From assembly GCF_053078305.1 (NCBI RefSeq), contig NZ_CP166879.1: a DNA stretch of 64,000 nt; one strand, 5' to 3'. Made by a program: the position numbers. This document shows, in pieces, positions 36,001 through 39,000 of this stretch (position 1 is the first letter of the stretch; the number at the start of each line of letters is the position of its first letter).

Positions 36001-39000
36001 ATGGTATGCAACATCAATACTGGCTTTATCTGTCTGGACAAAGAAAGAACTCAGATAGCCTTCACCACCCTCACCCGGCCATTCCGCTATTCGCCAGTAC
36101 AAACCAAAGGCATACTTGTTTCTGGTTGTCTCAAGATTGACGTTTTCGGGGATTTTAAACCGGACAGCAATTTCCCCGCCTTTTTCCAGTAAAAGTTTTG
36201 CCTTGTCTGCAGCAATATCACAGTACATTGACCAGGATTTCGCGCTGTTATTTTTCTCAATTCGCAGAGCTTTATTGCCGCTGTCATCAACCAGTGTGCG
36301 TCTGCCATCCATACCGTCCCAGCCATAAGGTTTCAGCTGATTGTCCGAAGCTTTTTTGGCATCGTAAAAAATTACAGACTCTGAGGTGGTAACCGGTCTG
36401 TCTGGAACAACCACCCCGGCAGTACCATTAACAAACGCAGAAGACTTACCCGCGCAGCTCAGTATGGCCGTTGCCAGACGGTCTGAAATAATTCCACGTC
36501 GTGCCCATGAACTGAAATGGCTGGCCCTGTCCTGAGATGTCCAGGTGCTTCTGTCCGTTCGCCATTTTGAACCGTAATACCCGATACCCGGAATATCCGG
36601 GTCTTCTTCCGGTTTGTTCGTCGGGACGTTTGCCCCGTTCTCATCGGTCATGAACGGCACAAAATGGATATTCTTTTCCGTTTTGTTTTTGTAACTACCG
36701 TACACCGTCTGGTACGCCGTTTCGTTCTTCTGCTTCCAGAAATATGTTGTGTCTCCACAAATCCAGGGAACACCGTCAGCAGAACCACCAACACACTGTC
36801 CCACCATATCTGCAAGGTCCGCACGGTATTTATCCACCAGTGCGCCAAACTGAGCCGTGTGATTCGCTGGCGTGCCGCTGAAATCAAACTCCCCCTGCAT
36901 CCACACAACGGCAAGCAGCACATTTTTCGGATTCTTCGCCAGCGCGGCTTTTGTACGACCAATGAGGTCCTTATACAGCGGCTTGTCCACCCCCCAGCGG
37001 GTGGAACTCTCTGAGGCGCCAGTAGTGTCACTGTATGTGCCATCAGTTCCGGTGGTGAAAGCTGAACCACCACGGCAGCACGGAACAAGAAGAATGCCCG
37101 CATTCGCCGGTATAAATGGCAGAAGCTTTTTGGCGATATGCAGCCCCTGTCCCACACAGCCGTACTGACCTTTCGATAAATCCGCTTTGGGATGATTAAG
37201 CCCTGTCATATCCTCCACATCATGGAGACAGTGATCTGCCGGGATAATATCGTTATAGATACATGCAGCACCTCCCGGTGTCACCGTACTGCGACGCGCT
37301 AACTGTTTAATACGTGGATCAGGGCTGTCGAATGTATCCGGTAATGGCAGTCCCTCACCGTATGACATACCATTGGACTGACCAGCAAGCGCGATCACAT
37401 AGTAATATTCTGGCGCAACAGAAGGCGCTGAGGTCGTCGGACGGTTGCCTGGCTCCTCTGGTGATGAGATGCTCCCCTCACTCACAACTGGCTGGATGAA
37501 CTCCGCACCATAACCAGCTGTCGAAATCAGCGCACTACCATAAGGCTGCCACCCTTCCTTCAGTTTTTGAGTTATTCGTTCCGCAAGGTCTGACGGCGAC
37601 GCCGCCCTGACCACGTCATAGTGTTTAAATGCCATGAATCCTCCCGGCCGGGATAATGTACTGAATAAGATAAGGAGTGAGCGGAAGTCCCGAAACACAA
37701 GGGAAAAAGACAACCACCCGCAAAAAAGAAATACACTCCTCACAGTTGCGCAGGGTGATTACTGTAAGGTATTATTCGCAGCGTTAATTAATTGTTCATA
37801 TTGCTTTTCTTCTTGCCAACCGCTCTTCCCGGGGCGGCTTTTTTTTGCATGTAAAAAGGCCCCTGCTATGAGGGGCCCTGGTATATGCCTAATCTCTGTA
37901 TACTGCATGGTGCCGGGTGCCTCCCGGTGAGTTCGGCCTGGTGCCACCAAACCCGCGTATTCTCGCTTACGATCATCAAAGAGATCATACCATTCACCAG
38001 TCGCCCCTCCGCACAGGGGGATTCACCATGCAGGATTTTTTTAACAAATTCTCAGCCAAGCAAACAACCGTCAACTACCTGAATTGTGAGTGATTTAACA
38101 TTTCACTGCCCAGTGTCTTCCCCTCATTAAAAAGCCCCTCCGGAGAGGGGCTGGAGAGTAGCGCTATGTACCGTTCATTGCATGGTGCCGGGTGCCTCCC
38201 GGTGAGTTCAGTATCAGCACCTGAACCCGCACAGAAAGGATAGAGGTAAAACAGAAACACCTGTGACGCTGATATGCCCCGCCGCTCAGGGGGATTCACC
38301 ATGCAGAAATTTTGTAGCACATCTATTATCAGACAGGCAACAATCAACTGACTGAATTGAGATGTATTTAACATTGATAAATCTCCGCCTGTTCTCTTCA
38401 CCAGGCTATTCTGAGTCAACGGAAAATAACCTCGCTGAATCCCCCTCCATTATGACAGGCATTAGTTTTAATGGTTACCGTCATCCCCGTAATTTGTGCA
38501 CTGAGAAGAAGAGACTGAAGATTCCATCTGTTAGTAAATAATTCTTTATCTCCCACTTTAACTGTAAAGGTATCGTCATCATTATATTTTGTATACTCCA
38601 CCTTCCCAGTTACACAATCTGGCGCAGCCAGCACACTTGCTGAAAAAAATGAAAGTGATGCAGCTATTAATAATATTTTTTTCATTTTACCCCCCTCAAC
38701 TGCTAATAGCCCTGCGTATCAAAATTGCCCCCAGAGTGGATGAGTCCCACAATATTTTATTGTGCGTAATCCCACGCACTCTTCCATCTACCGGGCACAT
38801 AGAAGGAAACTCATCAGGTACAATTCTGGCAACTCGCGATGCATGATGATGACAATTCAGTATTAATGCCACGCTACCCAGAATTGCATTAACACTTCCA
38901 AAAGAAATTCTTCCAACACGAACAGAGTCTTGTCCATGATAGTCAGGCAGGACACTACTCAACCTTCCCCAGTTCAACGTAAGATCAACATCTTCAGCAG

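Follow-up and report, generated by a model that had tools for sequence, protein, structure and literature searches.

The 780-bp gap between stx1B and the esterase gene that follows it in a Stx1c-converting lambdoid prophage (contig NZ_CP166879.1 of assembly GCF_053078305.1, of which we analysed a stretch of 64,000 nucleotides, here called the window) carries two similar elements, which are very probably two tandem paralogous small RNA (sRNA) genes of the STnc100 family, located in the 'moron' slot of the prophage and co-directional with the Shiga toxin (Stx) genes stx1A and stx1B. The kind of element is already known, and so is its position next to Shiga toxin genes. An Rfam scan of positions 35000-42000 gave exactly two matches, both to STnc100 (RF02076), both on the minus strand and both spanning the full model length from 1 to 206, with 199.1 bits for copy A (E 6.4e-47) and 138.7 bits for copy B (E 1.9e-31) against a gathering score of 47 bits. 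The original prediction, made from the bare sequence, had described a pair of look-alike elements with several possible functions, among them that they encode sRNAs. The pair is real, and this option is the one that held, as both copies belong to STnc100 and homologues are known as Hfq-bound RNAs 3' of stxB (PMC4104026, PMC7873438, PMC12711010, PMC12370729). The coordinates of all features are collected in Table 1.

Repeat analysis showed that the gap holds one unit of about 274 bp in tandem with a period of 273-275 bp, the repeats being far above chance. The block 37904-37934 recurs without any difference at 38179-38209 (31/31 identical), and further direct repeats were found between 38003-38049 and 38276-38322 (47 nt, 85%) and between 38065-38102 and 38338-38375 (38 nt, 79%). 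A GC-rich terminator-like hairpin is duplicated as well (37854-37876 and 38129-38151, 78%). No alignment was obtained between the centres of A (~37955-38003) and B (~38229-38276), which had rightly been called unrelated and correspond to the variable P3 region of STnc100. The boundaries of about 200 bp proposed before had to be shifted and extended to this unit, as they omitted the 3' linker and the terminator. Because the minus strand encodes stx1A and stx1B, it is the reverse complement of the elements that has to be read, opposite to the sense first assumed, and the direction of the late transcript, given by stx1B, runs from high to low coordinates. The conserved 'tail' therefore does recur in both copies but sits on the 5' flank, upstream of helix P1. 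Likewise, the strong terminator at 37853-37877 is present and belongs to copy A, but copy B has its own at 38152-38133, which had been overlooked; going downstream from stx1B, this terminator comes first, and most members of the family end in this hairpin.

The window is 99.5% identical to the phage phiSTEC1589-Stx1c (PQ600364), where Q is followed in turn by stx1A, stx1B, B, A, esterase, holin and lysozyme. Both elements are thus found where STnc100 is located, in the late region between the Q antiterminator and the lysis genes and co-oriented with the late operon, and an equivalent layout is present in the prophages Sp5 and Sp3 and in the enteropathogenic Escherichia coli (EPEC) prophages PP2 and PP4. 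Two other identities were considered and dropped: a tRNA or tmRNA, suggested by a CACCA-like 3' arm, as ARAGORN found no such genes in 35000-42000, and a homologue of IpeX from the K-12 prophage DLP12, a lead that was not supported, as Rfam found nothing in the quuD-nmpC-essD region. The ARAGORN result also means that there is no tRNA gene between Q and stx1A here, whereas three precede stx2A in the Stx2a phages L004 and L128.

Read in the sense of the RNA, each unit begins with a conserved 5' flank, which is followed by a core of ~125 nt, a short single-stranded 3' linker and a Rho-independent terminator. Within the core the 8-bp helix P1 (GCAUGGUG...CACCAUGC) closes a multi-helix junction formed by P2, the variable P3 region, P4 and P5, the last one being CCGGG-AGGCA-CCCGG. 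The terminal inverted repeat of 10 bp noticed at first is helix P1; it is exact in copy A, where ctgcatggtg/caccatgcag forms the inner part of a longer repeat (37900-37912 / 38024-38036, 13 nt, 92%), and in copy B only 9 nt are perfect, not 10 (38179-38187 / 38297-38305). The inner 5-bp hairpin ccggg-tgcct-cccgg was found in both copies as described and is P5.

For a comparison across the family we compiled cores from IMG/VR using an exact 23-nt pattern taken from P5 and P1' (the P1 strand on the 3' side) and added annotated phages and genomes. From 43 candidates two were false positives, leaving 41 distinct cores of 103-127 nt, 29 of which were aligned for counting pairs; since the search pattern fixed P5 and P1', the invariance of these two parts is uninformative. 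In the aligned cores 97% of the cells pair in P1, P2, P4 and P5, compared with at most 47% when the 3' partners were slid, and seven pairs vary on both sides. Of these, two belong to P1 (for example GCAUAGUG/CACUAUGC) and five to P4. The covariation score was not attained in any of 500 shuffles. The consensus structure of RF02076 with P1 junction, P2, P4, P5 and terminator is therefore present with covariation, and the earlier argument that conserved ends around a variable core point to structure proved sound, as the ends form helices with compensatory changes among these 29 members. The unconstrained minimum-free-energy fold of copy B gives P1, P2, P4, P5 and the terminator (z = -2.1), and the fold of copy A is stabler than its shuffles (z = -3.6).

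In GenBank small proteins are annotated over such units, namely the hypothetical proteins phiSTEC1589Stx1c_36 and _37 and ORF b70 of NC_004913, and open reading frames (ORFs) of 114 aa (38075-38419, minus strand) and 58-65 aa do overlap the two elements. That the elements encode these proteins is nevertheless highly improbable: no ORF is conserved across the 41 variants, in which the longest overlapping ORF varies from 0 to 222 aa in changing frames without any shared one, core lengths differ by non-multiples of three, and the RefSeq Prokaryotic Genome Annotation Pipeline (PGAP) has no annotation at STnc100 loci. Because no ORF is conserved across the family, the 'hypothetical proteins' are almost certainly artefacts. 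The records concerned are PQ600364 (4042-4341 and 4323-4475) and NC_004913 (3061-3384), and as PGAP leaves the matches in RefSeq E. coli genomes bare, the family is systematically unannotated or misannotated.

Miniature mobile elements or recombination sites had been named as a further option. Inverted repeats of 9-10 bp at the ends, as many as 9-10 matching places in an E. coli genome and joins of sequence modules that coincide with the conserved ends would all agree with miniature inverted-repeat transposable elements or sites of site-specific recombination. Against this, no direct duplications flank the inverted repeats and the flanks of both elements differ, the two arms covary as an RNA helix, no recombinase is associated, and the examined copies keep one fixed position in lambdoid prophages, past the Q antiterminator and ahead of the lysis genes, and point the same way as the late genes. 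We regard such an origin as very unlikely; what is left of it is the weak sense that invariant segments of the scaffold coincide with the joins of shuffled modules.

The closest described relative is EcOnc27. Tree et al. reported in 2014 that convergent Hfq-bound sRNAs are located 3' of stx2B in the Sakai prophage Sp5, EcOnc27 in sense and AsxR in antisense orientation (PMC4104026). EcOnc27 was found there by crosslinking and analysis of cDNA (CRAC) with Hfq and was seen on northern blots at ~235 and ~247 nt (PMC4104026 supplement). It has been equated with sRNA103 of EDL933, whose overexpression raises fimZ and espA (PMC7873438; PMC12711010), and also with STnc100, its variants being linked to the prediction of haemolytic uraemic syndrome (PMC12711010). 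STnc_100 was also placed 75 nt downstream of stx2 and detected in outer-membrane vesicles (PMC12370729), and EDL933 has 11 expressed STnc100 copies, one of them confirmed by northern blot (PMC5331693). Expression as discrete Hfq-associated sRNAs is thus published for homologues (PMC4104026, PMC5331693, PMC12370729). With the Rfam model we found matches at the same position and strand 3' of stxB in two Stx1a phages, NC_004913 and the Shigella phage Ss-VASD, in one Stx2a phage and in the Stx2a prophage Sakai Sp5; behind the Sp5 copy AsxR was recovered with 88 bits as positive control. EcOnc27 and the copies described here have in common a full-length covariance-model match, the helices P1, P2, P4 and P5 with the terminator, the strand, the distance of ~75-110 nt past the stxB stop upstream of the esterase and a convergent terminator behind them. 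The core of copy A agrees at 126/127 positions with the single copy in Stx1a phages. The 3' linker of EcOnc27 is 59/62 identical to that of copy A, and its published northern probe matches 37874-37908 of copy A with one mismatch. The loci differ in that EcOnc27 is single and belongs to Stx2a with AsxR as partner, whereas here a tandem pair belongs to Stx1c with a partner that is not AsxR, and the centre and 3' linker of copy B are absent from EcOnc27.

More distant are the PasD sRNAs of EPEC, to which STnc100 has been related in a 2026 preprint (10.64898/2026.05.13.724894). PasD1 and PasD2 of EPEC E2348/69 (alias EcOnc13 in Sakai Sp3) share the scaffold's 5' half (GCAUGGUGAAUCC, P2 and P4), the late-region slot before the esterase or holin genes, the spacing from promoter to P1 and the dependence on Hfq. 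With RF02076 they score no more than 38-41 bits, which falls short of the gathering score, and they lack P5 and carry a long 3' extension with a UGUGAG seed. Copies A and B are not PasD RNAs, as both keep P5 and their 3' tails differ from the UGUGAG module ahead of the GGCUGCGC terminator. A likeness also exists to Hfq sRNAs derived from 3' untranslated regions (3' UTRs) such as CpxQ and SroC, because copy B shares its terminator with stx1AB and release from the mRNA 3' end is possible; unlike these, STnc100 units also stand alone or in arrays, and promoter regions of their own are known for homologues (PMC10794520).

Copy number and composition vary between phages. One STnc100 copy was found in each of the four other Stx phages and prophages examined (Stx1a, Stx2a), and most other phage matches to the window are ~270 bp shorter in span. 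The contiguous arrangement of B core, B tail and A flank is present at a coverage of at least 80% in 84 of 5,426 complete E. coli genomes; it is 99.3% identical in nine of the 30 best-scoring records listed and at least 99% identical in 14 records overall. STnc100-like sequence as such occurs in ~2,600 E. coli genomes. Tandem copies were also found among the IMG/VR contigs, two each in L010 and L067 and a pair in L115, and L052 (IMGVR_UViG_2529293141_000008) has five full-length copies (4984-5196 and 6956-7937), four of them in direct tandem with a period of 261-271 bp, each with its own centre and terminator. Two tRNA genes precede the array of L052, and a 654-aa ORF follows it. The single copies are mosaics: NC_004913 (Stx1a) combines the 5' flank of B (95/111), the core of A (126/127) and the 3' tail of B (46/51), and Ss-VASD the flank of B with core and tail of A, the joins between 5' flank, centre and 3' tail lying within the invariant scaffold. 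Compared with Ss-VASD, the two-copy state is longer by exactly one unit of 273 bp, and the sequences are consistent with an unequal crossover inside the scaffold as its possible origin.

The conserved block AATGTTAAAT..TC(A)CAATTCAG..TTGA precedes most members of the family. In copy B this 5' flank would serve as promoter region or else be transcribed as a leader. Upstream of the first G of P1 we read a weak promoter-like geometry in both copies, TTGCCT-N18-TACAAA-N6 in B and TTGTTT-N18-TAAAAA-N6 in A. The first G of P1 is the mapped 5' end of PasD1 and PasD2, which have TTGACT-N18-TAAAAA-N7 upstream, and the spacing is the same in A and B. Furthermore, the STnc100 copies of LT2 have their own promoter regions with binding patterns of RpoD and RpoN by chromatin immunoprecipitation with exonuclease digestion (ChIP-exo; PMC10794520). 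The 'EcOnc13' probe (PMC4104026 supplement) is the exact complement of the STnc100 5' leader after stx1B in Stx1a phages. It was not relied on as evidence for a transcribed leader of B, as it has no match at the EcOnc13/PasD locus in Sp3 (1727-1900), and its label has probably been shifted within the table of the supplement.

From the published homologues we would expect that each unit gives a discrete Hfq-binding RNA of ~170-250 nt, which would pair in trans with mRNAs of the host or the phage via the variable single-stranded centre and the 3' linker. Because centres and 3' linkers differ and the 5' flanks are only 79-85% alike, A and B most likely differ in target specificity. A weak promoter in each 5' flank would drive the RNA, copy B may also arise by 3' processing of stx1 transcripts, since its terminator is the first one after stx1B, and Q-antiterminated late transcription would read through both terminators. 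A seed motif YYU..UGUG was tried as a feature common to the variable centres and rejected, since only 5/31 centres carry it.

An effect on toxin transcript stability had been another option of the original prediction and may exist, given this position of the B terminator. In a rival reading the two elements would work purely in cis: as a structured 3' UTR with terminator they would set the end and the stability of the stx1 transcript and insulate the lysis genes from the iron-regulated stx1 promoter. The size of EcOnc27 on northern blots, which suggests transcripts starting right past the stxB stop codon, and a stretch of 11 nt in stx1B (38436-38446) complementary to the invariant UGAAUCCCCCU of both copies would fit as well. 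We consider a function in cis alone unlikely, as STnc100 is also found in prophages where no toxin gene precedes it, behind tRNA genes and in arrays with as many as four copies, and as homologues accumulate as discrete Hfq-bound RNAs, the PasD RNAs having many partners by ligation and sequencing of interacting RNAs (RIL-seq; PMC4104026, PMC8550237). A conserved 125-nt junction would be superfluous for a mere terminator, and complementarities of 11 nt occur at about the chance rate in the 64-kb window. With regard to the complementarity itself, AGGGGGAUUCA in the stx1B mRNA pairs perfectly with UGAAUCCCCCU at the P1/P2 junction (38015-38025 and 38288-38298), and a comparable 11-nt complementarity has been claimed for stx2B (PMC12370729). 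By our own estimate the chance of such an 11-mer inside the adjacent gene is ~0.01-0.02, for a match that was noticed post hoc. In a search of A and B against the rest of the window the longest sense-strand matches were 11-mers, five for A where about four are expected by chance by our own estimate.

Several points weigh against the assignment as trans-acting sRNA genes with their own promoters. The unconstrained minimum-free-energy fold of copy A departs from the family structure outside P4 and P5, and a consensus promoter scan reported no strong sigma-70 site at the flanks of A and B, the elements there being weak. The 235/247 nt of EcOnc27 imply a 5' end ~75-85 nt upstream of P1, just past the stx2B stop, so that the whole conserved flank would be inside the RNA, which favours processing of an upstream transcript over an internal promoter; both routes, an internal promoter and processing from toxin or late transcripts, may operate. 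Expression and Hfq binding are known from homologues, this phage being known by its sequence, and would apply here by analogy. For no STnc100-type RNA has a direct target been validated, the effects on fimZ and espA being indirect or predicted in silico. Finally, plain base-pairing sRNAs seldom have a near-invariant scaffold, and its presence may hint at a protein partner or another role.

This last point leads to a different reading, in which STnc100 is not a seed-pairing sRNA but a scaffold RNA whose invariant junction binds a conserved protein of host or phage, the cassette tuning an activity as sponge, decoy or in the conflict between phage and host. P1, P2 and P5 are indeed almost invariant across mosaic phages with swapped flanks and centre, although in part as an artefact of the scan pattern that fixed P5 and P1'; arrays carry copies with different cassettes, and more than ten years have passed without a validated direct target (PMC7873438). 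On the other hand, crosslinking of EcOnc27 to Hfq and its Hfq-dependent stability are published, the PasD relatives are classic Hfq sRNAs with a seed motif (PMC8550237), and the invariance may merely mirror recent spread and recombination among close prophages, so that we give this reading little credence. Similarly speculative is the idea of STnc100 as a family of programmable scaffolds, with a near-invariant four-helix junction and exchangeable cassettes, stacked in the moron slot of lambdoid prophages with two units here and as many as four elsewhere. If true, each cassette would be a separate specificity in host reprogramming or phage competition, and the junction would bind a further partner.

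Convergent pairs of sRNAs 3' of stxB are a published layout (PMC4104026, PMC7873438). Back to back with the terminator of copy A lies an intrinsic terminator on the plus strand, at which a convergent sRNA, the other member of the 'dyad', probably has its 3' end. The EcOnc08/21/42 probe matches exactly at the equivalent place in the Stx1 phage NC_004913, and the homologous stretch here has seven mismatches. Because of the plus-strand terminator and this probe-homologous stretch the published 'dyad' layout is kept, and the sequence suggests an EcOnc42-like RNA, not AsxR/AgvB, as the putative partner. The anti-sRNAs AsxR and AgvB (RF02703, RF02702) are known from the same 'dyad' locus, where they face an STnc100-type RNA between the late promoter and the lysis genes; they are 51-60 nt long, lie on the opposite strand, have a conserved 3' region of ~42 nt and are unrelated in sequence to STnc100. 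Behind copy A neither was matched with E<=1 over 7 kb or E<=10 over 301 nt. A candidate EcOnc08/21/42-like sRNA with the published size of ~271 nt would extend over 37575-37845 on the plus strand, its start possibly being antisense to the esterase gene's 5' end. A match to the RyhB model at 37784-37846 (plus strand, 14.9 bits, E 3.1), where AUUGUUCAUAUUGCU resembles the RyhB core, is most likely due to chance.

Elsewhere in the window three more Rfam matches lie above their gathering scores, all on the plus strand: sRNA-Xcc1 (48757-48845, 66 bits), isrK (57728-57801, 53 bits) and C4 antisense RNA (57827-57910, 70 bits). The latter two are adjacent, likewise in contigs L009 and L010.

Table 1: Features of the stx1-esterase region in window coordinates.
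Feature	Position	Strand	Basis or remark
STnc100 copy A, full model span	37847..38060	minus	RF02076, 199.1 bits, E 6.4e-47
Copy A, core	38031→37905	minus	
Copy A, P1	38031-38024 with 37912-37905	minus	
Copy A, variable centre	~38003-37955	minus	
Copy A, 3' linker	37904-37878	minus	EcOnc27 type
Copy A, intrinsic terminator	37853..37877	minus	within RF02076 alignment; inverted repeat in repeat analysis
Copy A, 5' flank (86 nt)	38032..38117	minus	conserved block shared with B; alignment, flank catalogue, segment table
STnc100 copy B, full model span	38122..38333	minus	RF02076, 138.7 bits, E 1.9e-31
Copy B, core (P1 to P1')	38304→38180	minus	
Copy B, P1	38304-38297 with 38187-38180	minus	
Copy B, variable centre	~38276-38229	minus	
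Copy B, P5 (ccggg/cccgg)	38188-38202	minus	
Copy B, intrinsic terminator, GCCCCTCTCCGGAGGGGC then TTTTT	38128..38152	minus	terminator scan (38152-38133); 8-bp stem, 6 GC pairs, T-rich tail
Copy B, 5' flank (111 nt)	38305..38415	minus	holds the 'conserved tail' block 38306-38375; 95-96/111 identical to the stx1B-adjacent flank of Stx1a phages
Convergent intrinsic terminator, back to back with that of copy A, CCGCTCTTCCCGGGGCGG then CTTTTTTTT	37820..37845	plus	terminator scan
Stretch homologous to EcOnc08/21/42 probe target	37742..37776	plus	28/35 identical
stx1A	38696-39652	minus	ORF listing
stx1B, Stx1c-type B subunit	38416..38685	minus	ORF listing; labelled Shiga toxin I subunit B in PQ600364
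SASA-family carbohydrate (sialate O-acetyl) esterase, next late gene downstream	35725..37635	minus	ORF (1.9-kb); PQ600364 annotation

In summary, what this window adds to the known association is modest, namely a tandem pair in a Stx1c phage compared with single copies in the Stx1a and Stx2a phages examined, and the shuffling of modules around the scaffold. The sRNA family adjoins the Shiga toxin genes, and haemolytic uraemic syndrome risk has been linked to its variants downstream of stx2a (PMC12711010). As a natural comparison, the two-copy Stx1c locus could help to probe the role of STnc100.

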